In this document: positions 153 to 62,001 of the stretch, one piece after another
Numbering within the stretch: the first letter of the stretch is position 1
Layout: the number at the start of each line of letters is the position of its first letter
DNA from: Eledone cirrhosa
Taxonomy: Eukaryota
NCBI GenBank assembly: GCA_964016885.1
Contig: CAXHJY010001274.1
Coordinates: 62,001-126,000, forward strand
Length of the DNA stretch: 64,000 bases
Direction: 5' to 3'
Program-made: the position numbers and the translations under genes
Notes under the pieces: generated by a model
The model's database searches: none
Seen by the model: the letters and a program-made list of their open reading frames with translations, nothing else
What the model was told of the DNA's origin: nothing

Positions 153-2581
153 ATTTCTTTATTAGCCACGAGGGCACAAAAGAAGGGGACAAATACAAAT
201 GGGGAGTTTACATACAGGTATATGAAAATAAAACTATTAATAAAACAACAAATAACAATTGAAATCCCCAATAGGGGGAGGTGTTACACAGGAGTTGTAC
301 ACACCGCGAAAAAAAATGTACAACCCTCATCTCCAGAAGCACCAAGAGTGAGTACTCCCTTCCTCTCTTCCTCTTTTTCCTCAACCTACAGGATTATATA
401 GAGAGAAGACCCAACCGCTCGGGCCATCTTTTCCACATTCACCCACCTTTTATAAAACTTGCTGGGGTACAGCCCCTCTCTCTCTCCATCCTGGCTCTTC
501 TTCTAAAGTGGTATTTGAAAAAAAAGAATCAGTTGTTCGCCGGAGAGAAAGGTGTCTGACCTCAGCCCTTTTAACATCGTCCACCATACAACCTCTTTCA
601 CCATAGCCATAACACATAGAAAAACCGCCTCTCCTTCGTTTTTGAAAGCGGATGGCGGTTTGATCATGACAATGGACTCGGAGGTCAACTGGATTGGTCC
701 CAAACGCGACATTAGTCGTTCTACATAGCCCCAAAGGTCGGTAACGTCGCGTACGCATCTCGGACAGATCTTTTTTGAAGTGTCTCTGCCCGGGCGCTCG
801 TGTCTGTAGAGCTTGTCTCGAACTGGTAGAGCTCCGCGGTAGCACTGCCAGGCCAGGGACTTTTGGAAGTTGTCCATCGGTCCCGGGCGGAAGGTCCTAC
901 CGAACAGACTGGCCAGTTCGCCCTCCACTACGCCTAGAGTTTCTCCGAGCGCGGCGTCGCACTTGCTGCTGACCAACCCTCTATAGAATGACGAAGTGGA
1001 GTCTCCACTGATCGCCGGGTCCGTTTGCCAGAGGACTGTGAGCGCCTGAGCACATTCGATGTGCCAGTCACCCAGTTTCTTCGGTCTTTGCTTGACTCAG
1101 TACTGCAGCTCGGTCAGCGAGACGAGTCGTGGGAAGGCTCGCCTCACGAACGGGGCCCACACCGGTTGTCCGGTGAGGAATACGTGGAGGTGCCGCAGCC
1201 TGAGCGCGTGTTTCCTCATCGTCAGCTACGGCATACCCAGCCCTCCGTTTGAAGGGTGTTGGCAGCAGATGGATCTTCTCACCAAAGGATCCCGTTTCTT
1301 CCAAAGGAATTGGAAGACCACGCGCTCCATTTTGGTGAGCGTTTTGGCTGGACAAGGCGCGACGGTCAAGCGGTAATAGATGACGGACGCTATAAAAGTG
1401 TTCGCCACCTCCGCTCGACCTTTCAAGGATAGTTTGCACTCGGCCCACTTCTGGGTGAGCGCAAACACCTTGGCCGTCACCTCGTTCCAGTTCTTCTCCA
1501 CCTGGAGGTCCGGACCAAACCAGACCCCGAGCAGCTTTACCGGTCCTTCCGTCCAGCGTCCGACAACGCCATCGGAAGGCATCGGTTTGCCTTTCCACGT
1601 TCCGAGTTGCAAACCGACGTATTTGTCCCGGTTCAGCTTCGCTCCTGTGAACCTTTCGTATTCCTCCAGTAAGGTGCCGACCTCCCCGATTTGCGAGGTG
1701 CTCGACACCATTACTGTCATGTCGTCGGCGTAGGCCGACGCCTCTTTTCGCAGTCCCGGTTCCAAAGGGATGCCCTGCAATAGCTCCAACTTCCGCAGTA
1801 GTGGCTTGAGAGTCATTACGTACAGAAGGGAGAAGAGAGGGCATCCCTGTCGGGTGGATCGCGTGATATGGAACGGCTCCGAGAGGTAGTCGTTCACCTT
1901 GACCCTTGAGCAGATGTTGCTGCTGTGTATTCCAGCAATCCAGCCCCTGAACACGGGTCCGAAGCCTGCCGCCTCGAGCACCGCATCCAGGTAACGATAG
2001 TCAACCCTATCGAAAGCCTTAGACTGATCCAAGTTCATCAGGGCCCCACCGAAGCCGGGTTTAGACCCAACCGTCTCTATGATGTATCGCATGAGGTGGA
2101 GGTTGTTGTGTATGGACCTGGTCGGGATTGCGCATGTTTGCGCTTCTCCCACCAGGCTTTCGACGTCAAGCGCCAACCTCTTTGCCAACACCTTGGCCAA
2201 CAAGTCCGGCATTGCAACGTAAAATTCGTAGGGTAGACCGTCGAGACCTGGAGATTTGCGTTTGCCGCATTGGCTCAGCGCGTCCCCTATCTCAGCGGCC
2301 GAAATCGGCCTTTCGCAGAACTTCGCCTCGCTGTCCGAGAATCGCGGCAGGCCGTCGAGGTATGGACCGAAATCCATAGCCCCTCCCGGCGCGTCGCCCT
2401 GCCCGAACAGCTGAGCAAAGTGCCGCTGAAAGGCCGCGCACATCTGCTTCGACTCACGTATCACGTGTCCGTCTTGGTCCTTCAAAGACCGAATCGTGAA
2501 CTTGTTGCACTTTTCGCCTCCGTCACTCGGGCCCAGCTAACAGCTTTGACTCCCTCGGTTCCCAGAGCAGGTATTTTTCTC
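151..2581 (-). mobile_element. 5'-truncated Tx1-like copy A (RT to 3' end, internal deletions) between GATA tracts
   Basis: ORFs 1226-2485 (SPGLDG, DQSKAFDRV, QGCPL, YADD) and 503-976 (CYRGALPVR, CPRC). 3' end AATAAAGAAAT-(TATC)n; GATA-like tract resumes at 2582. Confidence 0.92.
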
Positions 2582-2620
2582 ATAGATAGATAGACAGGTA
2601 GATACATAATTAGATAGATA

Positions 2621-3503
2621 TCTTTCTTTATTTGCCACAAGGGCGTACAATAAATGGGATATTACAAGACGTGACGGCGGGGGGTCTTACATAAAAATTA
2701 TATAACTTTAATAAATAATTATAAACCATATATAAAATAAAATAACAATTGAAATCCCCAATAGGGAAGAACGTTCCTGCGTAGTGTTTTACACCCCGTA
2801 GATAGTACAACCCTGAACACCAGGAACACGTTTTGTAGGTGTTCCCGTTTATCTTCCTCAACCTACAGGTTTATATACAGAGAATCCCATTCACTCGGGT
2901 CATTTTCGCCACATTCATCCACCTTTCAGCGAATTTATTGAGGTGTAGCACCGCTCTCTCTCTCTCTCTCTCTCTCTCTTCACTCTCACCTTCTTTCTGA
3001 AGTGCTACTTAAAGAAGGGAATGAGTTGTTGTCCGGAGAGAAAGGTGTTAGCCCTCAGTCATTTAACCTCGTCCACCACCTCTCCTTCATTCTTAAGTGA
3101 AGGCGTCGGGGTGATCCTCACGATGGACTCGGCTAACAACTGGATGTGTCCCATACGTGACAGTAGCTGTTTGACATAATTCTACAGGTCGATCACCCCT
3201 GGGCACTGAACAGTTGCGTGGAGGACGGTTTCAATGTCCTGCTCGCACCTTGGACAGGCAGGACCTCTGCCAGGGCGTCGTTGCCTGTAGATCTTGTCTC
3301 GAACTGGTAGAGCTCCTCGGTAGCACTGCCAGGCCAGAGACCTCTGGAAGTTATCCATCTGCCCTGGACGAAAGTCCTCCCGAACAGACTGGTTAGTTCG
3401 TCTTCTTCGATGCCTAGAGTTTCCCCTAGAACGTCGTCGCACTTATCCTCCACTAATCCCCTATAGAATGTCGAAGTGGAGTCTCCGCTGATTGCCGTTT
3501 CCA
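2621..3503 (-). mobile_element. 5'-truncated Tx1-like copy B (zinc-finger region + 3' UTR, divergent subfamily)
   Basis: MDNFQRSLAWQCYRGALPVRDK..CPRCEQDIETVLHATVQC; flanked by GATA tracts 2582-2620 and 3504-3576. Confidence 0.88.
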
Positions 3504-3576
<73 letters not shown>

Positions 3577-3577
<1 letters not shown>

Positions 3578-3946
3578 TTCTTTATTAGCCACAAGGGCGC
3601 AACAAGAAAGGGGACAATACAAAGACATGCCGGGGATTTTACATACAGTCGTGTAAAAAATATAAAAACAAACAATTTCAACAATCGAAATCCCCAATAG
3701 GGGGGAGGCGCCACAAATGGGTTGTTTAATACCCCGTCGATAGAACAACTCTCAACTCAAGGAGCGTGTTGTGCAAGTGCTCCTTTCTTCCTTTTGCTCT
3801 CTTCCTCAACCTACAGGCTTATAAACAGAGAAAGCCCAATCACTCGGGCCATTTTCGCTTCATTCACCCACCTTTCAGTAAATTTACTGGGGTGCAGTGC
3901 CTCTCTCTCCACCCTGATTCTCCTTCTAAAGTGATACTTAAAGAAT

Positions 3947-3947
<1 letters not shown>
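3577..3947 (-). mobile_element. 5'-truncated Tx1-like copy C (ORF2 C-terminus + 3' UTR)
   Basis: FFKYHFRRRIRVEREALHPSKFTERWV matches the ORF2 C-terminus; flanked by GATA tracts. Confidence 0.85.
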
Positions 3948-4011
<64 letters not shown>

Positions 4012-4012
<1 letters not shown>

Positions 4013-4143
4013 TTCTTTATTAGCCACAAGGGCGCAACAAGAAAGGGGACAATACAAAGACATGCCGGGGATTTTACATACAGTCGTGTAAAAAATATAA
4101 AAACAAACAATTTCAACAATCGAAATCCCCAATAGGGGGAGGC
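4012..4143 (-). mobile_element. Tx1-like copy D (3' UTR only), apparently identical to the 3' end of copy C
   Basis: tttctttattagccacaagggcgcaacaag...aatagggggga repeats 3577-3709; GATA tracts on both sides. Confidence 0.85.
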
Positions 4144-4635: not shown

Positions 4636-4636
<1 letters not shown>

Positions 4637-4799
4637 CGAAGGAAGTGTGGTAAGGAACCAGACGCACCAAAGTACTCAAAACTTAGGGTAGTAGAGTGGG
4701 TAATAGGAACGAGTAGGACCCCGACGGCTGAGCTCAAGCCGTTTCGACAAGCCGTTTCGTCGAAACGGCTTGAGCTTAGCCGTCGGGGTCCTACTCGTT

Positions 4800-4803
<4 letters not shown>
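4636..4803. mobile_element. TA-embedded palindromic mini-element, copy 1
   Basis: Conserved aacgaaggaagtgtggtaaggaacc..gtagtagagtgggtaa segment plus a TAGGAA...TTCCTA palindrome. Confidence 0.8.
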
Positions 4804-4886
<83 letters not shown>

Positions 4887-5687: not shown

Positions 5688-6005
5688 TTCTACCTGGAGT
5701 TGCGACCGATAGATAGTATTAGCAATTGGAAAGACCAACGGAAACATTGTTCCCTCGGTCCGATTTGACGAAAGTCGATCGTCCCTTTATACGTATATAT
5801 ATATACGTATATATATATATTTGTATATATATATATACGTATATATATATATATATATATACGTATATATATATATATATATATATATACGTATATATAT
5901 ATATATATATATATACTATATATATATATATATATATACGTATATATATTAAAATTTAGGCCTAGAAGAAATAGTCGCATTTGTTGGTATAACCCACCAA
6001 ATAAT

Positions 6006-6638
6006 ATGGAGGTGGCCACACCATTAGCTAAGATCATTCTTTCCCTTATTACGAAGCATTTTCTCCCTACACATAAATATAGTAAAATTTTTAATAGAAA
6101 TACTATCAAAATTTCTTACTCTACGACTCCTAACCTTGCACATAACATCACAGCTTCAAATTTAGCTAAACTACCTAGCCGTAGGAACACGTGCAACCCT
6201 GTAGTTAGTACTAACTGTAATTGTAGGAATCGGGTTGATTGCCCCCTATCCGGGAAATGCCTCTCTAGTAACATTGTCTACAAATGTAAGGTTGTAACAC
6301 CCACGTCCTGTAGGGCCTACATAGGGTTAACCGCCAATAGATTCAAGCAGCGTCTTTACATGCATACCCATTCTTTTCGTTACCCTCTAAGAAGGAATAT
6401 GACGTCACTTTCAGCTTATATCTGGAGTCTAAAAGACAACCACACCCAATATAAGTTACACTGGGAGATCCTAGCTAGGGCTAGATCGTATAACGGAAAT
6501 AAAAGACCATGTGACCTGGAAATACTCTACGCCACAGACCACATCTTAAACAAAAAATCTGAGGCAATTTCGGCTTGTAAACATAAATTGCACAAAACTT
6601 TCCTGTATTACAGCCCCACGTTATACCCTAACGGATAG
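6006..6638 (+). CDS. Penelope-type GIY-YIG endonuclease fragment with Cys-rich linker
   Basis: [31 protein letters not shown]...[37 protein letters not shown]. Confidence 0.85.
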
Positions 6639-7565
6639 TACGATCTATACGTGGATATTTTACGTCTTGATGTGGGAGCTAAGTATATGTTTTGTTTATA
6701 CCATTACTTATTTGCATAGGTAAGTATATATTACTCGTATGTTTTGTGAAGGTACGTATACCTTCTCGTACGTATATTTGATTGTTTATGTTATGGCGTA
6801 TAATTTTATATATTCTGGTACATATGGTTTGGCTTTGTGTATACGGGAGTTTGGCGTCTGTGTGAGTATGCTGGTTCATACGTATGTAGGGTGTGTGTAT
6901 ATGTGTACTTCATGTTTTGGTTGACTAACGTCTCCGAACATTCGTGTATTTACATGTAGGTATATGTGTGCGCTTGTTATATACGTATTTATTTATTTAT
7001 ATACGTTTATATAATTATTTATTTATTTGTATACACGCATACACACACATATTTATATGTGCGTGGTTTTGTATACCTATGGTAAGTGTTTTGCGTATGC
7101 TTGTGTATGTACGTATTTGTTTTCATGTATGTATTTATTTCTATTTCTTCTGTATTGTATTTATTTACTTTGTTCTTAACTCTGTAGCGGAGATTCATTC
7201 GGTCTCCTAGTTAGAATTTTAGTCTACGACTTCTGCTATACCATTTACGTGGTTTTGTCTTTGCGTGCTATTGTTCTCCACGCTCCACATATGACGTATT
7301 ATCTTCGTTTTTTTCGTTCATTGCCAGAGTACGTCTCTATGAACCACATAAGAGAACATTAGTCTACGACCTCTTTTATACCATAAACGTGGTTCTGTCT
7401 TTGCGCGTAATTGTTTTTCACCGCTCCTATTAATGACGTATTATTCGTTTTTTCGCGTTCTTAGCCAGCGAACGTTTCCACGAACCAAAGTATCGTCTTC
7501 CTGTCTTCCTCCGGTTGCAACGTTTTTTGAAATATCCACTTCTGCGTTTACAGATTGACTTTGTT

Positions 7566-7616
7566 AGTTTCAGAAGATCCCGTTAAGGGTGAAAGCAGCG
7601 ATTCTTTGCTTAAACT
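7566..7616 (+). ncRNA. Degenerate hammerhead in the Penelope 3' pLTR (core CAGAAGA)
   Basis: agttt-CAGAAGA-tccc/gggt-GAAA-gca..tgc-TT-aaact; one core substitution. Confidence 0.55.
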
Positions 7617-7627
7617 TTAATCTGTTA

Positions 7628-7659
<32 letters not shown>

Positions 7660-7663
<4 letters not shown>

Positions 7664-7779
7664 AAAAGAGTCAGGACGCCGGTGGGTGAGCTCCGGCCGC
7701 TTCGACACTCTACTATCCCAAGTATTGAGTACGCTTGTGCGTTATGGTCCACCTGGTATCTTACCATACCCTCTTTGTT
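7660..7779. mobile_element. TA-embedded palindromic mini-element, internally deleted copy (opposite orientation)
   Basis: Contains ctctactatcccaagtattgagtac..gcgttatggtccacctgg. Confidence 0.7.
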
Positions 7780-7810
7780 ATATATATATATATGTGTGTG
7801 TGTGTAAGTG

Positions 7811-9575: not shown

Positions 9576-10404
9576 TAACCCTCTCAACAATAATAAATAT
9601 TTGAAAATCATAAATCAGATTTCTGTTTTAATTCTTGTCACACCTAACATAATAATAACTGGTCGACATTTTTCAAAACAAATCAAGGGAAAATAACCAC
9701 AGAATTTTATTCCAATTTTATTATCCCTTTCATCTAAGACAGTAAATTCTAAAAGAATGATGGAATTTGAAATCTTAAAAAGAAGGATTTGATAATGGAA
9801 AGATCAAAGATGCTAGAAACAATAAAAAATAATCTTAAAACAGTCATACTAAGTGACAACAAAATTATACGTAAGTAAATATATGTTGTCGATATGTGTA
9901 ATGTGTACACTTGATAGACTTTATTTGACGTCATTTCTATTGTAAAATAGATTTTAGACAGACGTTAGTTTGTAGTTCAACATCTAAAATTCTGAAGGAT
10001 TGGTCATCTGTAATTAAAACGTTTATTAGTTATTTGTTTTGTAGACATACGAAACGGTAATCGTTGTTTGAGATAAAGCCAGAGTCGTTATCTTTGGATG
10101 TCTCTTACTTTCTATCTTTCTCTGGAAAAATCTGTTGTACTCAGGCCTGGAGAGGGATGGGCCCCTCCAAGCTTTAAAATGCCCAAGAAACGCCTTATGT
10201 CTATACGGCGCCTCTACGTTTTTATCAGGAGTTGCGGGACCATATATACATACAATATATAAGATTGATTTCGAAAAATGATAATCGCAACTGCAACTTC
10301 GATTTTACTCACTATTATATTTATATATATATCCAGGAAGCTCCAACCGTTAAGGTTGTCTTTTTTCCGGGTATGTCAATATTTATTTATAAAACAAATC
10401 TGTA

Positions 10405-10466
10405 TTTTATCTGATGAAAGCGCACCATAATTTGCCTTGGTTGCCCTTGAAATATATATAATAAAA
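10405..10466 (+). ncRNA. Minimal type I hammerhead ribozyme
   Basis: ttttat-CTGATGA-stem II-GAAA-tatata-TA-ataaaa. Confidence 0.75.
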
Positions 10467-10620
10467 CAATTATGGTTTTATAAATATAGTTTCCATTTAT
10501 TAATATATTGTGTATTTACTCCACTAACCTGTTGAGTGCTTTATATCAGTTATAAAAATTATTTAAGCTTGTTGAATCCCAACAAATTAAATATAACCTC
10601 TGCATATATATATATATATA

Positions 10621-10910
10621 TGAATGTATATACAGTGTATTTTGCAATACACTGTATGCTTAATTAAAAGCATTTTGAAGACCTTACGCTATTGTTTTAA
10701 AGTAGTGGCTATGTCACTTACACAAAAGGAGTGCTAAGCTCTGAAGAATACCAACAGTATGAAACAGAGATCTGTCAGCTTATCTCCCTTTGTTTGTTGA
10801 AAAAAGAAGTAAGTGACATAGTCACCTATTTTAAAACAATAGCGTAAGGTCTTCAAAATGCTTTTAATTAAGTATACAGTGTATTGCAAAATACACTATA
10901 TATACATTCA
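10621..10910. repeat. Inverted repeat (~100-bp arms) enclosing a hammerhead
   Basis: 10621-10720 pairs with 10810-10910. Confidence 0.88.
10735..10782 (+). ncRNA. Type I hammerhead ribozyme (intact core)
   Basis: taagct-CTGAAGA-atac/caaca/gtat-GAAA-cagagatctg-TC-agctta: all three stems pair; GUC cleavage triplet. Confidence 0.85.
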
Positions 10911-11185
10911 TATATATATCGCTATTTCAGAGCACCAATTCTAATTTTCATATATATATATATATGTGAGAAAAACCACAGATGTGAGAAAAACCACAGA
11001 CCCTCCATCTCAACTCTACTTTTGAAAAGCAGAAGAACTGCGAAACCGGTAAAGGAACCAAGTAAATATATATATTTTTTTTAAATAAGACTCCAGTTGC
11101 ATTTTCGATTTCATCTTTTTTTCTTTATACTTTCACTCGTGTAGGACACCTCGGTTATTTTTCATTTTGTAAAAAAAAACCTCAC

Positions 11186-12696: not shown

Positions 12697-12900
12697 AGAA
12701 TAGAGTCAGGGCCCCGACGGCTGAGCTCCGGCCGTTCCGACAGCTAGATCCGGACTCCTACTCCGATCTAGCTGTCGAAACGGTCGGAGCTCAGCCGTCG
12801 GAGTCGTGACACTTTTCCTATTACCCACTCTACTACCCTAAGTATTGAGTACTCTGGTGCGTTATGGTCCACCTGGTTCCTTACCACACTTTCTTCGATT
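12697..12900. mobile_element. Palindromic mini-element copy (opposite orientation)
   Basis: ccgacggctgagctcc...ggagctcagccgtcgg palindrome plus the conserved tail. Confidence 0.78.
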
Positions 12901-16728: not shown

Positions 16729-17047
16729 CACATATATATAACACAACAAATTTTATATATATATATATAAGCAGAAGGGATATTCAATGTGTTGGTAATT
16801 CAACAAATATAAATGTTTATAACTGATTCAGAGCACTCAACCGATTTTCTGGAGTATAATATAAAATGATATTAAATAAATGGAAACTATATTTATAAAA
16901 CCATAATTATTCTATTATATATATTTCAAGGGTACCAAAATTGTTGTACGCTTTCATCGGATAAAATGCAAAGTGTGTTTTATAAATTTTGACATAACCA
17001 AGGAGAATATACTTTAACGGATCAAGTTATCCTTGGATAGTTTTCTA

Positions 17048-17655
17048 ATTCTAATTAGATATTTTATTTCACTTGTCCTTGAAATAATCTAAATAGCACG
17101 ACAGACAAATGAAGAGATAAAGTTTTGTTTTAAACGCAATATATATATATATTTAATTTTTTGTTGTTATATATATATATATATATTAAATTTGTTGTCA
17201 TATATATATATATATATATATACGTTATTCCGGGTTGAATCGGCACTCTCTGTGCCCCTTATAACCATCATCAAGAAACCATGCTGACCAAACTCGACCT
17301 TGATATTTCCTTGAAGAACATCCCTATCCCTCCAAGAAAAAAAAAAAAAAAAAAAACCACTTGTAGAGACCTATAAATACCATATTTATTTTTTGATACC
17401 CAGATTCCTGATGATTTCTAATGAATGAAACAGTTCTAGTCCTGTAGAATCTCATCTATATTAAAACTATATATATATATATATATATGAATGAAAAATG
17501 GCGAGCTGTGTTGTTGCCAATATGATATATATAATAAATATATAAATATATATATATATATATTGCGTTTAAAACAAAACTTTATCCCTTCATTTGTCTG
17601 TCGTGCTATTTAGATTATTTCAAGGACAAGTGAAATAAAATATTTAATTAGAATT
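17048..17655. repeat. Inverted repeat (~95-bp arms) around TA tracts and a hammerhead-bearing insert
   Basis: 17048-17142 is the reverse complement of about 17561-17655. Confidence 0.8.
17402..17452 (+). ncRNA. Type I hammerhead ribozyme
   Basis: agattc-CTGATGA-tttctaatgaat-GAAA-cag ttctagtc ctg-TA-gaatct. Confidence 0.75.
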
Positions 17656-20413: not shown

Positions 20414-20824
20414 ACCTGAAAAATGCGCAAGCTCAAAAGAGCCACATAATGTTATAATAAACCTTCAAAAGTGTGGGACTAGAATTGTTGCTCAAAAATA
20501 TTGTAATCATTATCTATCGTACACTCTGTGGCACCCTTTTATAAAAAAGAGACTCATAACGAACTCAAGACGACACGATAATTATTTAGATGTTTAGTAA
20601 TGATTAATACGAAATGCACTTAAACCGAATTCTATATTATAAATTCACTTAAATAATTATCATGTCGTCTCGAGTTGGTTATGAGTCTCTTTTTTATAAA
20701 AGGATGCCACGGAGTGTACGATAGATAATGATTACAATATTTTTTAGCAACAACTCTAGTCCCACACTTTTGAAGGTTTATTATAACATTCTGTGGCTCT
20801 TTTGAGCTTGCTCATTTTTCAGGT
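20414..20824. repeat. Inverted repeat (~175-bp arms, ~60-bp loop)
   Basis: acctgaaaaatg..taattattta pairs with taaataatta..catttttcaggt, with scattered mismatches. Confidence 0.88.
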
Positions 20825-21588: not shown

Positions 21589-21815
21589 TAGGAAGAGTGG
21601 TAAGGAACCAGATGGACCATAACGCACAAGAGTACTCAATACTTAGCGTAGTAGAGTGGGTAATAGGAAAATGTTTGACCCCGACGGCAGAGTTCAAGCC
21701 GTTTCGACGGCTATTTCTGGACTCCAGAAACAGCTTGAGCTCAAGCCGTTTCTGGAGTCCAGAAATAGCCGTCGAAAAGGCTTGAACTCTGCCGTCGGGT
21801 TCAAACATTTTCCTA
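21589..21815. mobile_element. Palindromic mini-element copy with nested palindromes
   Basis: Conserved tail plus a ~150-bp palindrome centred on ttgagctcaa. Confidence 0.8.
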
Positions 21816-21828
21816 TATATATATATAT

Positions 21829-22204
21829 ATATTGGTAAACGGAATAGAAAATGCTGACAAATTGTTCACAGTGAAAAATGGTTTAATTAGGAATAAGTGA
21901 TAATTAGTAATAGTATTGGTTAGTATTAAGTTTTGGTTTTAAGTTTTACCGGTTGCGCATTTCTAATGCTTTTCAAAAATAATTTTGAGATAGAGCGTCC
22001 GTGATGTTTGCTCTGATCAGAGCAAACATCACGGACGCTCTATCTCAAAATTATTTTTGAAAAGCATTAGAAATGCGCAACCGGTAAAACTTAAAACCAA
22101 AACTTAATACTAACCAATACTATTACTAATTATCACTTATTCCTAATTAAACCATTTTTCACTGTGAACAATTTGTCAGCATTTTCTATTCCGTTTACCA
22201 ATAT
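21829..22204. repeat. ~375-bp perfect spacerless palindrome
   Basis: Arms pair around ctctga|tcagag (centre 22016/22017). Confidence 0.93.
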
Positions 22205-23659: not shown

Positions 23660-24120
23660 TCAATCGCCTTCTCTTCAATATTCTCACCTCTTCCAATAAA
23701 CAAAAACGTGACACACATACAGCCACATCACCTCTAGCCCTAACTCCATTATCCCGTTACCTACGACTCTTTCTCTCTGTCCCTCTCTCTCTCTCTCATC
23801 GCCCCACCTCCACTGACTCTGCACACGTCACACCTCCGCCTCCACTAGTTTCTCTCCTTCACGTACTTCCCATACAGTTGTCGCCCCTCCTCACCAGGGG
23901 TTTGCTTCATACCCACCACATCCACATGCAACGCGTTCCAAACACCTGCTGGGGTTGAACGACTATTAGATCACATTAAAGCTACAAGCAGTCTTCTACA
24001 ACTCCATCATCGGCCCAAACAGACTATTTCGCAAGTTTTAGCCGCCGACAGTCACAGTGGACGCCGAGTTCTGATCAGTTCAGCATCCTTCACACAGTTC
24101 TAGAGACATGCCAACGTACT

Positions 24121-24309
24121 TTGAATCGCTTCAATTTCCAAAAGCATTCTCGTCTCACTGACCTTATTCAAGCTGAACTCTCCGCTTTGCGCAGACTACG
24201 GCGCCTCGATGAAATTGTCATCAAATCCGCTGATAAAGGTGATGCCGTTGTGGTGAGGTACGCAGGCCTCTACAGGACGGACGTCCTTCGCCAGCTTCAC
24301 AATACGTAA
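24121..24309 (+). pseudogene. Penelope-like RT N-terminal fragment
   Basis: LIQAELSALRRL...IVIKSADKGDAVVV matches the diagnostic PLE IKxADKG motif. Confidence 0.75.
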
Positions 24310-29596: not shown

Positions 29597-29774
29597 TTCA
29601 CCGTATTTTTGACTAAAGGAATTTTAGACTGATAATCGTGTTTAGAACCCTCAGATAAATGGAAAAAGATGAGTATTGACGTACATGTACGTCAATACTC
29701 ATCTTTTTCCATTTATCTGAGGGTTCTAAACCCCATTATCAGTCTAAAATTCCTTTAGTCAAAAATACGGTGAA
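29597..29774. repeat. ~178-bp near-perfect spacerless palindrome
   Basis: Centre gacgtaca|tgtacgtc (29685/29686); ends ttcaccgta / tacggtgaa. Confidence 0.9.
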
Positions 29775-31772: not shown

Positions 31773-34700
31773 CTACAGGATGGTATACAGAGAAGGCCCA
31801 TTTACACGAGCCATTCTCGCCACTATCACCCACCTTTCATAAAACTGCCTGTGGCCAAGCACCTCTCTCTCCATTCTTATCCTTCTTCCGAAGTGATATC
31901 GGAAGAAGTAGACCAGACTATGGCCAGAGAGGAAGTTGCCTGACCTCAGACCTTTCAATCGTGTCCACCAAACAACCTCTTTCAACATGGCTATTACGCA
32001 CAGAAAAACCGCCTTTGCTTCCTTTGTGAAGAGGGGAGGCGGTTTGATTGTCATCACGGACTCGGCGGTCAATTTAATCGGCGCCACCCGCGACAGCAGT
32101 TGTTCGGCGTAGCCCCACAGATCAGCCACGCCCGGACATTGCACCAATGCGTGCGCTACGGTTTCTTCGTGACGCACGCATCTAGGGCAAATCTTTTTTG
32201 AGGGATCCCTGCCCGGGCGCCCGTGTCTGTAGAGCCTCTCTCGAACGGGTAGAGCCCCTCGGTAGCACTGCCAGGCCAGTGACTTCTGGAAGTTGTCCAT
32301 TGGTCCTGGGCCGAAAGTCCTACCGAACAGGCTGGCCAGTTCGTCTTCTTCCATGTCCAGCGACTCTCCAAGGGTGTCATCGCCCCTGCTAGCCACCAGC
32401 TCTCTATAGAATGATGAGGTGGATTCTCCACCGATGGCCCGGCCCGCTTGCCAGAGAGCCCTGAGCGCCTGAGCACACTCAGTGTGCCAGTCTCCCAGTT
32501 TTCCGGATCTTTGCTTGACCCAGGACTGTAGCTCGGTGAGTGAGACGAGTCTCGGAAAGGCTCGTTTCACGAACGGAGCCCACACCGGTTGACCAGTGAG
32601 GAATACCTGTAGGTGCCGTAGCCTTAATGCGTGCCTACGCATCATCAACCACGGCATCCCCAGCCCTCCTTTCGAAGGTTGTTGGCAGCAGATGGATCTT
32701 CTCACCATAGGAGGACGCTTCTTCCAAAGAAATTGGAAGAGCATGCGTTCCATGGTGGTGAGTGTTTCCTTAGGGCAAGGCACGACAGTCAGGCGGTAGT
32801 AAGTGACGGACGCTATGTAAATGTTCGCCACCTCCGCCCGGCCTTTTAGGGACAGCTTACACTTGGCCCATTTCTGGGTTAGTGCAAACACCTTGTTCGT
32901 AACCTCGTTCCAGTTCTTTTCCACCTGGAGGTCCGGTCCAAACCAGACCCCAAGCAACTTTACCGGGCCCTCCGTCCAGTGTCCGACGACACCGTCAGGA
33001 GGCATCGGTTTGCCTCTCCACGTTCCGAGTTGCAGCCCGATGGATTTTTCCCGGTTCAGTTTCGCTCCTGACAACCTTTCGTACTCCTCCAGTAAGGTAC
33101 CGATCGCCTCGATCTCCGAGTCGGTTGATACCATTACTGTTACGTCATCGGCGTAGGCCGACACCGCTTTGCTCAATCCTGGTTCCAGGGGGATACCCTG
33201 CAACAACTCCAACTTCCTCAGTAAAGGCTCGAGAGTCAATACGTACAGAAGGGAGGAGAGAGGGCACCCCTGTCGAATGGATCGTGTGATTTCGAACGGC
33301 TTCGAAAGGTAGCCGTTCACCTTGATCCTAGAACAGATGTGGTTGCTATGTAGGGCAGTGAAAACAGGACCGAACCCAGCCGCCGCTAGCACCGCATCCA
33401 GGTAACCATGGTCGACCCTATCGAAGGCCTTAGACTGATCCAAGTTGATCAGGGCCCCACCGAAGCCGGGTTTGTTGCCAACCCTCTCTATGATGTATCG
33501 CATGAGGTGGAGGTTATCGTGAATGGACCTGGATGGGATAGCACATGTCTGCGCATCTCCCACCAGGCCACCCACGACAAGCGCCAACCTCTTTGCTAAC
33601 ACCTTGGCCAAAATCTTTAACTCTGTGTTTAGCAGGGTTATGGGCCGAAAATTATTTATACTATCCCCCTTTTTCTCGTCCTTCCTCACCAGCGTGACTA
33701 CGCCCTTGGCTACAGAACAAGGAATTCTCCCGTTCTGCTGCCAATTGCAGTAGACCGCTTCGAGGAGTTCGGAGAAGAAGACCGGCATTGCTAAATAAAG
33801 TTCGTAAGGTATACCATCGAGACCTGGAGATTTGCGTCTGCTGCATTGGCTCAGCGCATCTCCGATCTCATCAGCCGAGATTGGTCCCTCGCAGGACTCT
33901 GCCTCTTTGTTCGAGAGACGCGGCAGGCCGTCGAGGTATGGACAGAAATCCACGCCCCGGCCCGGACCCTCGCCTCCCCCGAACAATCGGGCAAAGTGCT
34001 TTTGAAAGGCCTCGCACATCTGCTTAGGCTCCCGGATCACTCGTCCATCTTCGTCTTGCAACGACCGGATGGTGGATCGATTTCCACTTTTAGCTTCTGT
34101 CACGCGGGCCCATCCAACGGCTTTGGCCCCCTCATTACCTAGAGCACGTATTTTACTTCGAATGACGCAGCCTTCATGCTTTGCATCGAAAAACTGGTTC
34201 AAGGCCGTCCTCGATGCCAGCACTCTAGCCACATCTTCGCTCTTGATTGCCTCTTCTAATTTACCTGTTAATTCTTTCTCGTTTCTATTCCTATTGGCAG
34301 CTAACATCTTGCTATAACTTATTGATTCTGTTCTAATCTCTCTTTTGAGAGATGCCCACCATCGGTTGTTGACGATTGCACCCGTCAACCTCTCCTTAAC
34401 TAATCTGCTAATCCGGTTTCTGTAAGTCTCTTTTGCCGGTAAAGACAAATTAAGTTTCCAGTAACCGGGACCCTGTCTATGTGTTTTCTCGAGATTGACC
34501 ACGCAGGTCACTAATTTGTGATCCGTGTAGCCAACCGTGCGCATTTCTGGACAGCTTAATATGTCCCTATCCTTACTTCTAACTAAGAATCTATCTAAGT
34601 ACGATCTAGATTGACCACTGTGGTTTCTCCAAGTCCAGGTAGGCACAGTTGGAAAATCTAGTCGATATCTATCGACCAAGTTAAAACGGTCGAGTAACCC

Positions 34701-35198
34701 CTTGAGGCTGTTACACCCCCCTCTATTAGGACATGCTCCTGCATAGTCCCAACGTGCATCTAAGATGTCATTCCAATCCCCCGCTAGAAGCAGGGAACGC
34801 GACGTTCCCAGAAAAGTCTCCAAACGCTGGAAGAAGTCGGGCCGTTCAGCTCCGAAAGGGGAGTAGACGGCGACCAGTCTCAAGGCCGCACTTTCACTAC
34901 TGCCAACGTCTAGCACCAACAAACGACCCTCCGGGTCCGAGTGCACAACCTGTACGGCAAGACCCAGGTGTTTTTGCAGCAGCACGACAACCCCACCCCC
35001 ACCTCCAGGTTGACAGAGAGATGCATGCACCTCAAAGTCATCGAAGGTGGGGGCCAGCTGCCGCATGACGCTGATTCGAGTCTCACAGATAACCATTACA
35101 TTTATACTACATGACCTGAGGTCATTTAGAAGCTTTGCTTGCTTCCAAGTTGAGCCCAGGCCACGTGCATTCAAACATCCTACTCTTAACACATCCAT
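31773..35198 (-). CDS. ORF2: apurinic-like endonuclease + reverse transcriptase + C-terminal CCHC zinc finger (1141 aa)
   Basis: APE motifs CLNARGL, ICETR, VYSP, GDWN, YLDRFL, TDH. Linker GYWKLN. RT motifs SPGLDG, NFRPITLLN, DQSKAFDRV, QGCPLS, YADD, KLLGV. Zinc finger CPRC..ETVAHALVQC. Confidence 0.96.
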   Translation of the reverse strand: MDVLRVGCLNARGLGSTWKQAKLLNDLRSCSINVMVICETRISVMRQLAPTFDDFEVHASLCQPGGGGGVVVLLQKHLGLAVQVVHSDPEGRLLVLDVGSSESAALRLVAVYSPFGAERPDFFQRLETFLGTSRSLLLAGDWNDILDARWDYAGACPNRGGCNSLKGLLDRFNLVDRYRLDFPTVPTWTWRNHSGQSRSYLDRFLVRSKDRDILSCPEMRTVGYTDHKLVTCVVNLEKTHRQGPGYWKLNLSLPAKETYRNRISRLVKERLTGAIVNNRWWASLKREIRTESISYSKMLAANRNRNEKELTGKLEEAIKSEDVARVLASRTALNQFFDAKHEGCVIRSKIRALGNEGAKAVGWARVTEAKSGNRSTIRSLQDEDGRVIREPKQMCEAFQKHFARLFGGGEGPGRGVDFCPYLDGLPRLSNKEAESCEGPISADEIGDALSQCSRRKSPGLDGIPYELYLAMPVFFSELLEAVYCNWQQNGRIPCSVAKGVVTLVRKDEKKGDSINNFRPITLLNTELKILAKVLAKRLALVVGGLVGDAQTCAIPSRSIHDNLHLMRYIIERVGNKPGFGGALINLDQSKAFDRVDHGYLDAVLAAAGFGPVFTALHSNHICSRIKVNGYLSKPFEITRSIRQGCPLSSLLYVLTLEPLLRKLELLQGIPLEPGLSKAVSAYADDVTVMVSTDSEIEAIGTLLEEYERLSGAKLNREKSIGLQLGTWRGKPMPPDGVVGHWTEGPVKLLGVWFGPDLQVEKNWNEVTNKVFALTQKWAKCKLSLKGRAEVANIYIASVTYYRLTVVPCPKETLTTMERMLFQFLWKKRPPMVRRSICCQQPSKGGLGMPWLMMRRHALRLRHLQVFLTGQPVWAPFVKRAFPRLVSLTELQSWVKQRSGKLGDWHTECAQALRALWQAGRAIGGESTSSFYRELVASRGDDTLGESLDMEEDELASLFGRTFGPGPMDNFQKSLAWQCYRGALPVRERLYRHGRPGRDPSKKICPRCVRHEETVAHALVQCPGVADLWGYAEQLLSRVAPIKLTAESVMTIKPPPLFTKEAKAVFLCVIAMLKEVVWWTRLKGLRSGNFLSGHSLVYFFRYHFGRRIRMEREVLGHRQFYERWVIVARMARVNGPSLYTIL

Positions 35199-35231
35199 GT
35201 GGGCGGCAGAGCCAAAGGAGAGTGTAGAGAC

Positions 35232-37562: not shown

Positions 37563-37713
37563 TAGGAAAATCTTTAACCCCGACGGCAGAGTTTCGACGG
37601 CTATTTCTAGACTCGGGGTTAAACATTTTCCTATTACCCACTCTACTACCCTAAATATTGAGTACTCTGGTGCGTTATGGTCCATCTAGTTCCTTACCAC
37701 ACTTCCTTCGTTA
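37563..37713. mobile_element. Palindromic mini-element copy (opposite orientation)
   Basis: taggaaaat..ccccga...tcgggg..attttccta plus the conserved tail ending cttccttcgtta. Confidence 0.78.
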
Positions 37714-37906: not shown

Positions 37907-37958
<52 letters not shown>

Positions 37959-38001
37959 ATGATATTAATAAATGGAAACTATATTTATAAAACCATATTT
38001 A

Positions 38002-38058
38002 TTCTATTATATATATTTCAAGAGTACCAAAACGTTGGTACGCTCTCATCAGATAAAA
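38002..38058 (-). ncRNA. Minimal type I hammerhead (same family as 10405)
   Basis: RC: ttttat-CTGATGA-gagcgtacca..tggtactctt-GAAA-tatata-TA-atagaa. Confidence 0.72.
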
Positions 38059-38221
38059 TACGGAGTTTGTTTTATAAATATTGACATATCCAGGAATGAG
38101 AACTTAACGGTTCAAGTTTTACCTGGATAGTGTTATAATCTGTTACAAATATATATATTTGTTGAATTACCAACAAATTAAATATCCCTTTGCTTACCTT
38201 TTACATACATATATAATTCGG

Positions 38222-41777: not shown

Positions 41778-41779
<2 letters not shown>

Positions 41780-41910
41780 CGAAGGAAATGTGGTAAGGAA
41801 CCAGGTGGACCATAACGCACAAAAGTACTCAATACTTAGGGTAGTAGAGTGGGTAATAGGAACCAGTAAGACCCCGACGGCTGAGCTCAGCCGTCGGGGT
41901 CTTACTGGTT

Positions 41911-41914
<4 letters not shown>
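41778..41914. mobile_element. Palindromic mini-element copy with a short perfect palindrome
   Basis: taggaaccagtaagaccccgacggctgagctcagccgtcggggtcttactggttccta plus the conserved tail; (TA)n on both sides. Confidence 0.82.
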
Positions 41915-48019: not shown

Positions 48020-48272
48020 GATAGATAGATAGATAAATAGATACCTTTCCATTTATTTGCCACCAGAGCATGAAAGATTGGGACAAATACAAAGGTGGGG
48101 GGGAGTTTACATACAATAAAACGAGTACAAAAATATAACAAACAAAATAAAACAATCGAAGTCCTCAATAGGGAGGGGGCGTTTTGGGGGTCGCACACAC
48201 CCCCGAAAAAATGCGCAACCCTTCTCCTCGGGAGCACAAAGAGAGGGTGCTCCCTTCTCCTATTCTTTCCAC

Positions 48273-51200
48273 CTACAGGCTGATGTAGAGAGAAGGCCCA
48301 TTCACAAGGGCCATTCTCGCCACTTTCACCCACCTTTCATAAAACTGGCTGGGATGGAGCACCTCTCTCTCCATCCTGATCCTCCTTCCGAAATTATATC
48401 GGAAGAAAAGGACCAATTGTTGGCCGGAGAGAAAGGTGTCCGACCTTAGTCCTTTCAAACGCGTCCACCATACAACCTCTTTCACCATGGCTATTACACA
48501 GAGGAAGACCGCCTCTCCTTCGTTTTTGAAGCGGGGAGGCGGTTTGATCGTAACAATGGATTCGGTGGTCAACCGGATTGGTCCCACTCGTGACAGCAGT
48601 CGTTCCGCATAGCTCCACAGGTCGGCAACGCCCGGGCAGTGTACCAATGCGTGCGCGACGGTTTCCTCGTCACGCACGCATCTCGGACAGATCTTTTTCG
48701 AAGGGTCCCTACCCGGGCGCCCGTGTCTGTAGAGCTTGTCTCGAACGGGCAGAGCCCCACGGTAGCACTGCCAAACCAGGGACCTCTGGAAGTTGTCCAT
48801 CGGTCCCCGGCCAAATGTCCTACCTGGCCAGTTCTTCCTCCTCCATGCCTAGGGCTTCTCCGAGGGCATCGTCGCACATGCTGCTGACCAACCCTCTATA
48901 GAATGTCGAGGTGGAGTCTCCACTGATAGCTGGTTCCGCCTGCCAAAGAGCCGTGAGCGCCTGAGCACACTCCGCGTGCAAGGCGGCCAGTTTTCTCGGT
49001 CTTTGCTTGACCCAGGATTGTAGCTCGGTAAGCGAGACGAGTCTGGGAAAGGCTCGCCTCACAAACGGGGCCCACACCGGTTGACCGGTGAGGAATACCT
49101 GGAGGTGCCGTAGCCTTAATGAGTATTTGCGCATCTGCAGCCAGGACTTCTTCCAAAGGAATTGGAAGAGTGCGCGCTCCATTTTGGTGAGCGTTTCACC
49201 TGGGCAAGGCACGGCAGTCAAGTGGTAATAGATGACGGACGCTATATAAGCGTTCGCCACTTACGCCCGACCTTTCAGGGATAGTTTGCACTCGGCCCAC
49301 TTCTGGGCCAGTGCAAACACTCTGTTCGTTACCTCACTCCAGTTCTTCTCCACCTGGAGGTCTGGTCCGAACCAAACCCCGAGCTGCTTCACCGGGCCCT
49401 CCGTCCAACGTCCGACGACGCCGTCGGAGGGCGTCGGTTTGCCCCTCCACGCGCTGAGTTGCAAACCGACGGACTTGTCCCGGTTCAGCTTCGCCCCTGT
49501 AAACCTTTCGTATTTCTCCAGTAAGGTGCCGATCGCCCCGATTTCCGAGGTATTCGACACCATTACTGTCACGTCATCGCCGTAGGCCGACACCGCTTTC
49601 CGCAATCCCGGTTCCAAAGGGATGCCCTGCAACAACTCCAACTTCCGCAGCACTGGCTCGAGAGCCAGCACATACAGAAGGGAGGAGAGAGGGCACTCCT
49701 GTCGGATGGACCGCACGATTTGGAACGGCTCCGAGAGGTTGCCGTTCACCTTGACCCTCGAGCAGATGCAGCTGCTGTGCATTGCAGTAATCCAGCCCCT
49801 GAAAACGGGTCCGAAACCTGCCGCTGCTAGCACCGCATCCAGGTAACCATGGTCGACCCTATCGAACGCTTTAGATTGATCCAAGTTGATCAGGGCCCCA
49901 CCAAAGCCGGGTTCATTCCCTACCCTCTCTATGATGTATCGCATGAGGTGGAGGTTGTCGTGAATGGACCTGGACGGGATAGCGAATGTCTGCACATCAC
50001 CCACCAGGTTGACCACGACAAGCGCCAACCTCTTTGCTAACACCTTGGCCAAAATCTTTAACTCCGCATTTAACAGAGTTATGGGCCTGAAATTACTTAT
50101 TTCATCCCCTTGTTCTTGTCCTTCCTCACTAGTGATACTACGCCCTTGGTCACAGAACAGGGAATTATCCCGTTCTATTGCCAGTTGCAGTAGACCGCCT
50201 CGAGGAGATCGGAGAAAAAGTCCGGCATCGCTACATAAAGTTCGTATGGAAGACCATCGAGACCCGGAGATTTGCGTTTGCCGCATTTCCTCAGCACGTC
50301 CCCTATTTCAGAAGCTGAAATTGGCCTTTCGCAGGACTTCGCCTCCTCGTTCGAAAGACGCGGTAGGCCGTCGAGGTACGGACCGAAATCCACATCCCCA
50401 TCCGGCCCCTCGCCCTTCCCGAACAGTCGTGCAAAGTGCCTTTGAAAGGCCTCACACATCTGTCCAGGTTCAAGGATCACCCGTCCATCCTGGTCCTTCA
50501 ACGACCGGATAGTGAATTTAATCCCACTTTTGGCTTCTGTCACCCGGGCCCAGCTAACAGCTTTGGCCCCCTCGTTTCCTAGAGCACGTATTTTGCTTCT
50601 GACAACGCAGCCTTCGTGCTTCGCGTCGAAAAACTGGTCTAAGGCCGTTTACGACGCTAGCAGTCTGGCTACGTTGCCGCTTCTAATCGCCTCTTCTACT
50701 CTATCTACCAACTCCCTTTCCTTCCTATTCCTATCTGAGGCTAATTCCTTACTAAAACCTATCAAGTCTACTCTAATCTCTCTCTTGAGAGAGCCCCACC
50801 ACCTGCTGTTGACGATAGCCCCCGTCAACCGTTCCTTAAGTAAAGCGCTAATCCGATCCCTGTAAGCTTTACTTGCCGGTAAGGACAAGTTCAGCTTCCA
50901 GTAACCGAGTCCCTGTCTATGCGTTCTATCAAGGTTGACTAAGCAGGTCACTAATTTGTGATCTGAATAGCCAACCATGCGCATCTCTGGACAACTTAGT
51001 AGGTCCCTATCCTTATTTCTAACTAGGACCCTATCTAGGTACGATCTAGATGATCCGCTACGGTTAGTCCAAGTCCAAGTTGGAGCAGTCGGAAAATCTA
51101 GTCGATATCTATCGGCCAGGTCAAATCGGCCGATTAACCGTTTGAGGCTCTTACACCCCCCCCCCCTCTATCGGGACATGCCCCTACATAGTCCTAACGT

Positions 51201-51629
51201 GCATCTAGGATACTATTCCAGTCCCCCACTAAAAGCAAGGAGCGGGACGTCCCTAGAAAAATCCCCAGACATTGGAAGAAGTCAGGCCTCGCTGTCCCAG
51301 GCGACCAGCCTAAAGGCTCCACCTTCACCACTGCCAACGTCTAGTACCACCAGTCGACCCTCAGGGTCCAAGTGCACCGTCTGCGTTGCGAGGCCCAGGT
51401 ATTTTTGCAGCAGAACGACAACCCCACCCCCACCTCCTGGCTGACAGAGAGATGCATAGATCTCAAAGTCGTTAAAGGTGGGGTCTAGCTGGCGTTCGCT
51501 GCTGACCCTGGACTCGCAAATAGCCATGACATTTATACTGCGCGACCTGAAGTCATTTAGAAGTTTTGCCTGCTTCCAGGGTGAGCTCAGACCACGTGCA
51601 TTCAAACATCCTACTCTCAATACAGCCAT
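48273..51629 (-). pseudogene. Frameshifted/deleted ORF2 (APE-RT-zinc finger) of the decayed Tx1-like copy
   Basis: Pieces MAVLRVGCLNARGL, YSDH/GYWKLN, SPGLDG, NFRPITLLN/DQSKAFDRV/QECPLS/YGDD and CPRC..HC lie in different frames, with stops. Confidence 0.9.
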
Positions 51630-51649
51630 GTTGGCGGCGAAGGGGAAGA

Positions 51650-53604
51650 AAAAGAAAAGGCACGTACCTCCTTACATCCCGGGGACCGGGCTGCACAACT
51701 TCCATGGGGGGGGGGGGCATCAGAGTGTGGTGGCGTTGGAGTGTTCGGTGTGGTGTGGGTGTCTGGGTGGGAGCGGGGAAATTTGTCAAGACGCCCTCAG
51801 GAAAATTGTCTTTTAGTTCTATATAAATGTCTATCGGAGTTTTAATCATTTTTAAAGAGGGGTTCTCTGTGTCCCTCGTGAAATTTGGCCCTTCGGTTTG
51901 CACCGAAGGGTTTTGTTCAATTTTGTTTACAAGTTTTATATTTGTTGTGTTAAAGTATGTGTATAGTTGTGTCTGTGTAATTTTTGTTGGTTTTTGTTCT
52001 GTATTTTGTTGTTTTGTTTTGGGGAGGGGTTATTTTTCTTTGTGTGGGTGCGGTGTGTTTTCTTTTTTGTTCGCTTTATTTTTTGGAAGGGTTCCCCCTC
52101 GTCTTCTGACGTTAAGGGATCCTCTTCCATGTTGGAGAGGATGGGTATATTTTGGGGTTTTGTTATGTATGTTGTTGGAGTTATTTAGGTGGGGAGGGGT
52201 TGGGTGGGACCGTGTTTAGTTTTTTGTTGACTTGTTGTGTTTGTTGTTTTGGGGGTGGTGATTGTGTTTTGTTTGTGGAGTTGTTTTAGGTGTGGAGGGG
52301 TTGGGTGGGTCCGTGTTCAGTATTTTGTTGACTTGTGGTGGTGGTGGTGGTGGTGGTGGTGGTGTTTTTGGAAGTGTTGGCAATAAAGGTTTTTTAGTTT
52401 GTTGAGGCCAGGCAGCCCTCAGGTGACCTCTGCCTCCACAGAGGTAGCAAGCGGGCCGCCTACCCTCAACTGCAATGTTCATAAATTGTGAGCCTTCCAG
52501 GGACACTCTTTGGGGTATCTTTGCGATACGTTCTGGTTTCATTCGAACCAGAACCTGTATGCCTATACCGCCAAAGTGGCCCCTGGTGGCTTTGCCTATA
52601 TCTAGGAGTTCATCTTCGTTGTCCAGTATCCCTGCTAGTATCCACCACATATTTTTATTTGGGTGTATACCGGAGATTGTTATTTTTTTTAGTTTTCTTC
52701 CCCATGTAGGTGGGGAAGAAAGTGTACTGTTTGGACACAATTGGCGACACCGAGTATTTTTGGGCCACCAATTGGTCCTTCATCAAAATTATCAGACTCC
52801 CATAAAACTTCCCTCTCTCAATAAAAATCATGTCCTTCAACGCGTCTTTTAAAGCCAGTTCAATTTGGCTATGCGATAATTGAGTTGGTTTTTTCGACGC
52901 ATCTGATATAGTTCTAAAATTAATTGTCCTTAGGACCGTGTCTCTTTTAATATCCTTAGGGGAGATTATGGTGAATTCACCGTTCTCACCAAAGCTCACA
53001 TGTTTTCTCCCCTCTTTTAGCAATTCCGCTGCATTACTGATGTGAACTGGGGTGAAAGGTTCGGTCTCCTTAACGACCTGGGCAAAGTATATTCGTGTAG
53101 TGGGGTCTTTTTTTGTGTTCCGTTGCTGTTGTTCTTGTTTTCTTGGGTGTTTGCGTTTTGGTTGTTGCTGTTTGCGGTACAAATTTTTGGGTTTTCACCC
53201 ATCTTTTCGTGTTTTGGGTTCACATTTATGTTGTTTTCTTTGACATTGTTGCTGCTGTTTTCGCTTTTGTGTGTGTTTGTGTTATTTTCTTTGTTATTTG
53301 TGTTGGTGTTGTTGGTGTCAGTGTAATTTATACATGCTTTCAATTTACTGTTTCCATTGTTTGGGTTATTACCCAAGTTTTTACAATTGTTCGCCAAATT
53401 CACTTCCATACTCGCATGCGAAAGCGAGAGAAGGGAATCTTCAGTAGGTTGAGTTACTTGTTCCTCTTTATCACTTTCTCTGGGGAGGGGGGGGGGGGGC
53501 GTGGTAGTGGTGTTTTCATGTATGATGTCCATTATTGTAAGTTGATATACAAATTTTTCAAAGTAGCTTTTACCCCCAAAAAGGGGTAAAAATAAAATAA
53601 CCAT
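51650..53604 (-). pseudogene. Frameshifted ORF1 of the decayed Tx1-like copy
   Basis: Pieces RTINFRTI, FFPTYMGKK, VEGRRPACYLCGGRGHLRAAW and PMEVVQP match the intact ORF1; the last knuckle Cys is replaced by Trp. Confidence 0.8.
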
Positions 53605-58490: not shown

Positions 58491-58664
58491 GAGGCATAAT
58501 ATTTTGTATATAATAATCACAATTGTTTATTATGAAATAATCATATGTACATATGATGCGATATTATCAAATATTCGTATAATATAAAGTTGTACCCGAG
58601 GCCGTTCCGATTTGCTTTGTTTGTATTCAAAACGTCATTCTACCCAGATTCGTTTATCCAGTAC

Positions 58665-60596: not shown

Positions 60597-60746
60597 AAAG
60601 GACTGTCTGAGATTCCATGAAAAGAGGTAGAGGAGTATATATATATATATATATTACGAACATATAACAGTATTAGACTTTGGGGTTGCCCCAAAAGTTT
60701 CTGAACCAAAACGGGTTCCGCGTTCGGAAAAGTTTGGGAAACATTG
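60572..60746. mobile_element. hAT (Charlie-like) MITE with 8-bp TSD ACCTAGTT
   Basis: Ends tagtggtttccaaa / tttgggaaacattg; gggttccgc subterminal motifs; ACCTAGTT at 60564-60571 and 60747-60754. Confidence 0.75.

Positions 60747-61992: not shown

Positions 61993-62001
<9 letters not shown>

Follow-up and report, generated by a model that had tools for sequence, protein, structure and literature searches.

According to the accessible parts of the published descriptions, insertions of Penelope-like elements (PLEs) carry an inverted, 5′-truncated copy beside a direct copy and a tail of 30-40 bp at one end (PMC8557442; PMC3846280). In a Poseidon element, the available portion of the report equates this tail with the stretch between two reverse-transcription starts and finds ribozyme cleavage to be dispensable in vitro (PMC11167929). 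The Hydra clade of PLEs is defined, in the sections of its description at hand, by RWK, DKT, and CxCX5C motifs with no CCHH (PMC8557442). Non-LTR retrozymes offer another point of reference: the accessible excerpts describe head-to-tail tandem units, each with a hammerhead, that are non-coding, ~170-400 nt long, and below 45% GC, and whose expression yields monomeric linear and circular RNA; their mobilization by PLEs is proposed there from co-occurrence and homology only (PMC7229834; 10.64898/2026.07.22.740005).

Here we analyze a short insert at positions 10612-10950 of a 64-kb stretch of DNA (the window). It is a real, well-supported example of the described PLE insertion pattern. A literature search covering few subscription papers returned no paper on this family, nor on retrozyme units with an inverted-copy-plus-tail signature; the family may already stand in the PMC13282606 supplement or in Repbase/Dfam.

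Architecture of the insert

An earlier note on this DNA had described an intact hammerhead held in the loop of a ~100-bp inverted repeat and followed by a short tail of ~30 nt in a (TA)n context, and the alignment bears this anatomy out (Table 1). The 110-nt left arm pairs with the reverse complement of the 111-nt right arm at all but five positions (four substitutions and a single one-base gap); the arms measure ~100 nt once the shared TA run is excluded, and a repeat search reports an ungapped portion of 94 nt at 97%. Between them lies a loop of 87 nt (10722-10808). The hammerhead is located in this loop, as claimed, but the loop is not purpose-built to hold it, the ribozyme being part of a direct copy that begins 19 nt 5′ of the hammerhead core and runs through the right arm to the tail. 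The left arm terminates at the internal TA run of the element, and the right arm closes with the same run, which marks the proximal end point; the tail, whose 31 nt read as originally quoted, sits between this run and the right (TA)n. The last bases of the left (TA)n are indistinguishable from the internal TA run, and because the two merge no target-site duplication can be read. The tail bears a CGCT...GAGCAC motif resembling Hydra-clade tails, and its positions 10926-10933 are complementary to the 5′ strand of the hammerhead (10738-10745), a pairing through which the tail could switch the ribozyme off. The absence of coding sequence asserted in the earlier note is true of this copy, though perhaps not of the whole family. 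No other copy of the insert was found in the window.

Table 1. Features of the insert and its target tracts, in window coordinates
Feature	Positions	Strand	Basis
Left (TA)n target tract	10604..10621		sequence; arm alignment
Left arm: inverted, 5′-truncated unit copy, without tail or ribozyme	10612..10721	-	arm alignment; read joints
Direct tailed unit copy, 229 nt, 31% GC	10722..10950	+	alignment; X1 record 1 aligns from 10722
Helix I extension enclosing the hammerhead: internal loop plus closing stem	10722..10793	+	constrained fold (prediction)
Canonical type I hammerhead, predicted cut after C10776	10735..10782	+	descriptor; fold; family variation
Right arm: 3′ portion of the direct copy; contains small hairpins	10809..10919	+	alignment; fold
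Tail, common to the family	10920..10950	+	reads; motif pattern; alignment
Right (TA)n target tract	10951..10965		sequence

The hammerhead

The consensus features CUGANGA, GAAA, and UH and helices I-III in type I order are all present at 10735-10782: helix I pairs 10735-40 with 10777-82, CTGAAGA occupies 10741-47, helix II pairs 10748-51 with 10757-60, GAAA lies at 10761-64, helix III pairs 10764-67 with 10772-75, and the GUC cleavage triplet ends at 10776. A strict hammerhead descriptor matches once in the window, at this site, and never in 200 dinucleotide shuffles. The whole insert folds at a predicted -168 kcal/mol, and the fold with an active ribozyme lies 0.6 kcal/mol above the predicted minimum. 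Rfam returned no match at the gathering score over the window and, over 10200-11100, five weak matches at E values up to 5, none to a hammerhead family; in isolation the hammerhead stretch is no more stable than its shuffles (z -1.1 and -1.3).

An abundant family in three organisms

Ten public sequencing runs were listed, seven of them with part of the stretch and none recorded as RNA. Four (X1, X4, X7, and X8) were aligned to 10540-11040 at a likeness of at least 80%, which yielded 3090 X1 contigs and 4204 X8 RAD reads from organism A, 13 X4 contigs from organism B, and 10 X7 contigs from organism D, with coverage limited to 10625-10947 and the flanks skipped as repeats. The search for other copies that the earlier note had proposed thus uncovers an abundant repeat family, present in three organisms.

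The tail is common to the family and the arms are not. All four runs cover the tail bin 10914-10930 while 548 X8 reads depart at 10919 into (AT)n, so that the family has two right-hand end points. Past 10721, 22 X1 contigs, 346 X8 reads, and X4 contigs continue as the reverse complement of the 3′ part of the loop; since other copies extend the inverted unit beyond this point, the 10721 junction is private to this insertion. Fifteen of 17 joints are listed, at scattered positions and none of them frequent; 14 of these 15 are each supported by a single X1 contig (depth 5-24), the other by X8 reads sharing one start. Because the junctions vary from copy to copy, the arms are not fixed terminal inverted repeats (TIRs). 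The common tail and copy-specific junctions in reads from three organisms uphold the inverted-copy-plus-tail, Penelope-like reading of the insert; constant TIRs with an unconserved hammerhead, the outcome named beforehand as fatal to it, did not appear in the same reads. Summed X1 depth reaches 611,000-824,000 on the outer arms versus 6,000-52,000 over 10727-10777, a gradient that fits 5′ truncation, is confounded by short contigs and low-complexity arms, and is no measure of copy number; X8 depth is confounded by the restriction site at 10662/10866-10869. Within the arms the changes are private, positions 10708 and 10873 departing from ~99% of X1 depth, and follow no compensatory pattern.

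Among the 40 differences listed of 101, by contrast with a damaged core in one X1 loose-end string (four contigs) of a kind expected of old copies, variation across copies keeps the structure of the ribozyme. The free position 10745 (A/G/T) is the only catalytic-core site in that set. Helix II reads ACAC/GTGT in two loose-end strings (X1 and X4) versus ATAC/GTAT in the window, a change on both sides, and 10748 A>G and 10760 T>C likewise occur, unphased, in the listed differences. Two variants of loop III, 10770 A>C and a 2-nt loss at 10766, each yield a perfect palindrome; the accessible text of PMC4209133 gives a palindromic loop III as a hallmark of dimeric hammerheads.

Several other readings of these data were tried and rejected. 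An ADAR-edited template is compatible with three of the four arm substitutions, which could pass through G-U pairs, yet polarization by the reads is mixed (one A>G, two C>T). Copies starting at the cleavage site would explain a 10776/10777 boundary in two X1 contigs, which are too few and confounded by helix III divergence. A retained intron across the proximal end, like that of Chlamys-3, with GTAAGT at 10809 and TTTCAG at 10930 as its borders, was suggested by a GTRAGT kept across three diverged loose-end strings and set aside as weak: the GTRAGT stretch pairs as a hairpin with the variable R bulged out, no comparable splice donor is visible by eye at coral Hydra ends, and no 10809-10930 joint occurs among the 15 of 17 listed.

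Comparison with Hydra-clade loci

The window holds the end of an open reading frame at 5940-6638, for which Pfam gave no family. Of 380 candidates, 83 are related to it, many of them ~705 aa long; these relatives carry the RWK, DKT, and CxCX5C motifs. With one relative we fetched 56 Hydra-clade loci, to which alignment added 18, for a total of 74. Canonical type I hammerheads lie in them ~95 nt past the stop codon and ~180 nt before the next start. Aligning one reference Hydra end to the 56 loci gave 57 rows in 40 of them, 17 of which end at +60 to +200 of the hammerhead core: eight at +73-75, six at +134-137, and three elsewhere. The +73-75 position is an internal TA run and +134-137 is the tail end. 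In L010 and L049 one end of each kind is found in inverted orientation, which is the build of the insert at 10612-10950, and in six copies that lie upstream or carry a tail the start falls 9-53 nt 5′ of the core, a range that includes the 19 nt of the 10722 start.

Helix III of the window hammerhead is ACAG/CTGT, as in four Hydra ribozymes, those of Hydra-1_aMil, Penelope-1_NV, Penelope-1_SK, and Penelope-2_SK in the accessible part of the PMC8557442 supplement. The pattern TATAT..GCT..GAGCAC, composed post hoc after viewing both sides, matches once in the window (10913, in the insert tail) and in nine of the 56 Hydra loci, and the Hydra-2_Amil consensus, as given in the portion of that supplement at hand, closes with the same kind of tail motif (PMC8557442). 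Profiles of coral Hydra ends and tails gave no match to 10612-10950, and blastn of the unit against the 74 loci returned nothing significant (best 19 nt at E 0.04). The core-to-proximal-end spacing is ~170-178 nt in the insert versus 73-75 in coral Hydra, and the tail 31-40 nt in the insert family versus ~60. The Penelope likeness of the earlier note stands as a PLE pattern, but its closest comparators are Hydra-clade elements and not Drosophila Penelope.

The autonomous PLE with the same 3′ end that the earlier note had proposed to look for was not found in metagenome contigs, viral contigs, the 74 Hydra loci, or the available part of the Craig supplement. Exact degenerate hammerhead patterns had no match in the metagenome or the viral contigs, Hydra protein alignment against the viral contigs left none confirmed, and of four short words looked for in the accessible portion of the Craig et al. 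2021 supplement three had no match and the fourth matched at chance level. Eighteen of the comparator loci (L057-L074) lie in assemblies with bacterial or symbiont titles and carry Hydra-type PLE open reading frames accompanied by hammerheads and (TA)n stretches; a single assembly supplies 11 of the 18, an indication that these bins contain DNA of an animal host.

Other elements in the window

The insert has many repetitive neighbors. An arm-arm-tail family distinct from it occupies (TA)n at 4636-4804, 7662-7780, 12698-12900, 21590-21813, 37565-37711, and 41779-41912, with a variable fold-back, a constant ~85-nt tail, and arms that vary in five of the six copies aligned. The coral Hydra tail profile matches four of these copies weakly (E 0.009-0.06), and the 3′ half of a hammerhead (GAAAC...GTC) seems to lie within their arms, which would often place the fold-back apex inside a ribozyme. 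Between (TA)n tracts at 5940-7635 (+) lies a 5′-truncated Hydra-type PLE end, with a GIY-YIG-like frame containing CxCX5C, an extended 3′ region, and, near 7571, what looks like a decayed hammerhead. A third family, with a minimal-type hammerhead and no fold-back, is represented at 10330-10603 (+), 16771-17049 (-), and 37957-38194 (-), with the GAAATATATATA palindrome and with hammerhead cores at 10411 and 38052. The insert sits in the (TA)n that ends the first of these copies; a link to the neighboring hammerhead at 10411 was rejected, the two belonging to different families with no sequence in common.

Palindromic inserts also lie beside TA runs at 21833-22200 (368 nt, 100% self-complementary), 20415-20823 (~410 nt, 88%), and 29597-29774 (178 nt, 98%), and a hammerhead scan of the three found none. 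A short frame at 23980-24309 (+) contains a KSADKG motif and presumably resembles an N-terminal piece of a PLE reverse transcriptase; Pfam gave it no support. On the minus strand, 31773-35231 is a LINE whose 1152-aa frame has endonuclease, RVT_1, and zf-RVT domains and is preceded by a 575-aa frame, with decayed relatives at 155-4143 and 48052-51716. Tandem arrays fill 58664-60597 (period ~92 nt, 97% alike) and 61996-64000 (period 615 nt, 100% alike).

A model for integration and its alternatives

A variable, inverted, truncated copy, a one-sided tail shared across the family, and a sense hammerhead near the 3′ end are all present, and the insert is very probably a PLE-type retro-insertion of the described type, probably a Hydra-like one. 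The Hydra label itself we would favor by a modest degree. Starting from the observed anatomy, the family with its common tail and variable junctions, and the same end pattern at Hydra loci, we posit that an autonomous element provides a reverse transcriptase/GIY-YIG protein, that this protein nicks a (TA)n target, and that reverse transcription begins at two fixed RNA sites 31-40 nt apart. A first cDNA would start at the distal site (the tail end, 10950) and extend 229 nt through the hammerhead to 10722; since it reads through the cleavage site, its template would have been uncleaved or re-ligated. A second would start at the proximal site, the internal TA run, and halt after ~110 nt at the equivalent of 10809, short of the ribozyme. 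Joined head to head, the two cDNAs would give the order arm, ribozyme loop, arm, and tail. The hairpin would then be a by-product of integration, and the ribozyme would act, if at all, in the RNA of the parent element, processing tandem transcripts, possibly as a dimer. We infer the RNA intermediate, the enzyme, and ribozyme activity, as well as the two priming sites, the latter by analogy with the work of Frangieh et al. on the Poseidon element.

What served as the template is a separate question. The end of a long coding element has an even chance of being the right answer, whereas a gene-less mini-unit is possible without being favored. In its specific form, the latter would be a gene-less non-LTR retrozyme-type unit of ~230-235 nt, present as tandem or circular RNA and copied in trans by PLE enzymes, in which the tail end joins the sequence just 5′ of the hammerhead and the tailed copy comprises almost exactly one turn; this proposal is somewhat doubtful. 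In length, GC content (31%), and its canonical ribozyme, the copy agrees with retrozymes as described in the available text of PMC7229834. The 30 letters preceding 10728 in a single X4 contig (record 12; depth 6.9) resemble the last 16 nt of the tail, and their hand-scored global alignment scores at least 7, a value that 1 of 20,000 random 20-mers from the window and 0.1% of AT-rich 20-mers attain; this hint of a tail-to-start joint occurs in that contig only. The last 12 nt of the tail (10939-10950) are complementary to 10798-10808, in helix I register if the ends were joined, a match shared by 0.16% of random 12-mers and 4% of shuffles, and a circular fold is predicted to form five of these pairs with probability 0.53-0.57 and to bring the energy penalty of the ribozyme-active fold down from 6.0 to 1.4 kcal/mol. 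The tests of the X4 letters and of the tail complementarity are, however, both post hoc and share one helix, which links them, and a simple test of duplex energy gives a weak signal (3.6% and 10%). No 3′-to-5′ head-to-tail joint occurs among the 15 listed of 17, where 397 X8 molecules ending at 10866 could reach one and clipping of reads from 10935 on lowers detection. The window holds no tandem copy, and coding Hydra elements, too, commonly start ~20 nt 5′ of the core. We thus regard as tentative, and rather unlikely, the conclusions that the family consists of a gene-less hammerhead unit of ~230 nt, spread to very many sites with the two-end, inverted-copy-plus-tail signature of PLEs and that the tailed copy is one turn of a circular template whose ligated cleavage site was read through.

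Origins outside PLE integration account less well for the insert. The long, near-perfect arms, the TA flanks, and outer arms far more abundant than the center would suit a MITE, a DNA transposon derivative with a TA target and ~100-bp TIRs that carries the hammerhead as a passenger. Such an element would not explain a tail outside one arm throughout the family, junctions that differ per copy with neither constant TIRs nor uniform ends in the reads, arms that run on in other copies as the reverse complement of the loop, or ribozyme variation that preserves structure; this reading is already largely refuted and we consider it highly improbable. Hardly more credit is due to a solo PLE end folded back later by a DNA-level event, such as template switching or repair at a TA tract, unrelated to integration. 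The wealth of microsatellites and palindromes in the window and the mere five differences between the arms are what such an event might leave, but the left arm stops exactly at the proximal end point of the family, and the arm-arm-tail order recurs in the second window family and at Hydra loci and is described for PLE insertions. Least probable by our estimate is a selected hairpin RNA, either a small-RNA precursor or a viroid-like rod, with a long stem presenting the ribozyme: the predicted stability of the insert fold and the near-minimal energy of its active ribozyme accord with this idea, as does the production of siRNAs from Drosophila PLE inverted repeats mentioned in the accessible part of PMC3681739, yet the junction is particular to this copy and the arms bear private changes only, without a compensatory pattern. 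PLE-type integration thus remains our preferred explanation.

For annotation, the insert is a reminder that such hairpins are easily filed as MITEs, and an abundant short family of this kind could help to locate both priming sites used by PLEs that target TA. If the gene-less unit were true, the family would record directly, in the genome, the mobilization of a retrozyme by PLE machinery, making the retrozyme-PLE partnership and the circular template testable on thousands of natural insertions.

Relation to known systems

The insert shares with MITEs its small size, non-coding sequence, inverted arms, TA flanks, and high copy number, and differs from them in its inconstant arms, conserved one-sided tail, and conserved ribozyme. 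With non-LTR retrozymes, as depicted in the available portions of PMC7229834 and 10.64898/2026.07.22.740005, it has in common a short (229-nt), low-GC, non-coding stretch, a link to PLEs, and a canonical type I hammerhead with a long helix I; unlike them, it contains a single ribozyme and no tandem and has an inverted copy and a tail. The Hydra clade, in the accessible part of its description (PMC8557442), resembles the insert in its (TA)n target, type I hammerhead with an ACAG/CTGT helix III, two end points of which the proximal falls at an internal TA run, and GCT...GAGCAC-like tail motif. The (TA)n target and canonical hammerhead are found in the insert but are not exclusive to Hydra, and the insert departs from the 74 loci in lacking significant DNA similarity, in its longer ribozyme-to-end spacer, and in its shorter tail; a Hydra-type frame end occupies the same window, whereas the insert itself has no open reading frame. 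Measured against EN+ PLE insertions, as presented in the available text of PMC8557442, PMC3846280, and PMC11167929, the insert differs in having no open reading frame, two very short copies, and no autonomous partner found, and agrees in the inverted truncated copy, the one-sided tail of 31-40 nt, the sense hammerhead near the 3′ end, and the AT-rich target.
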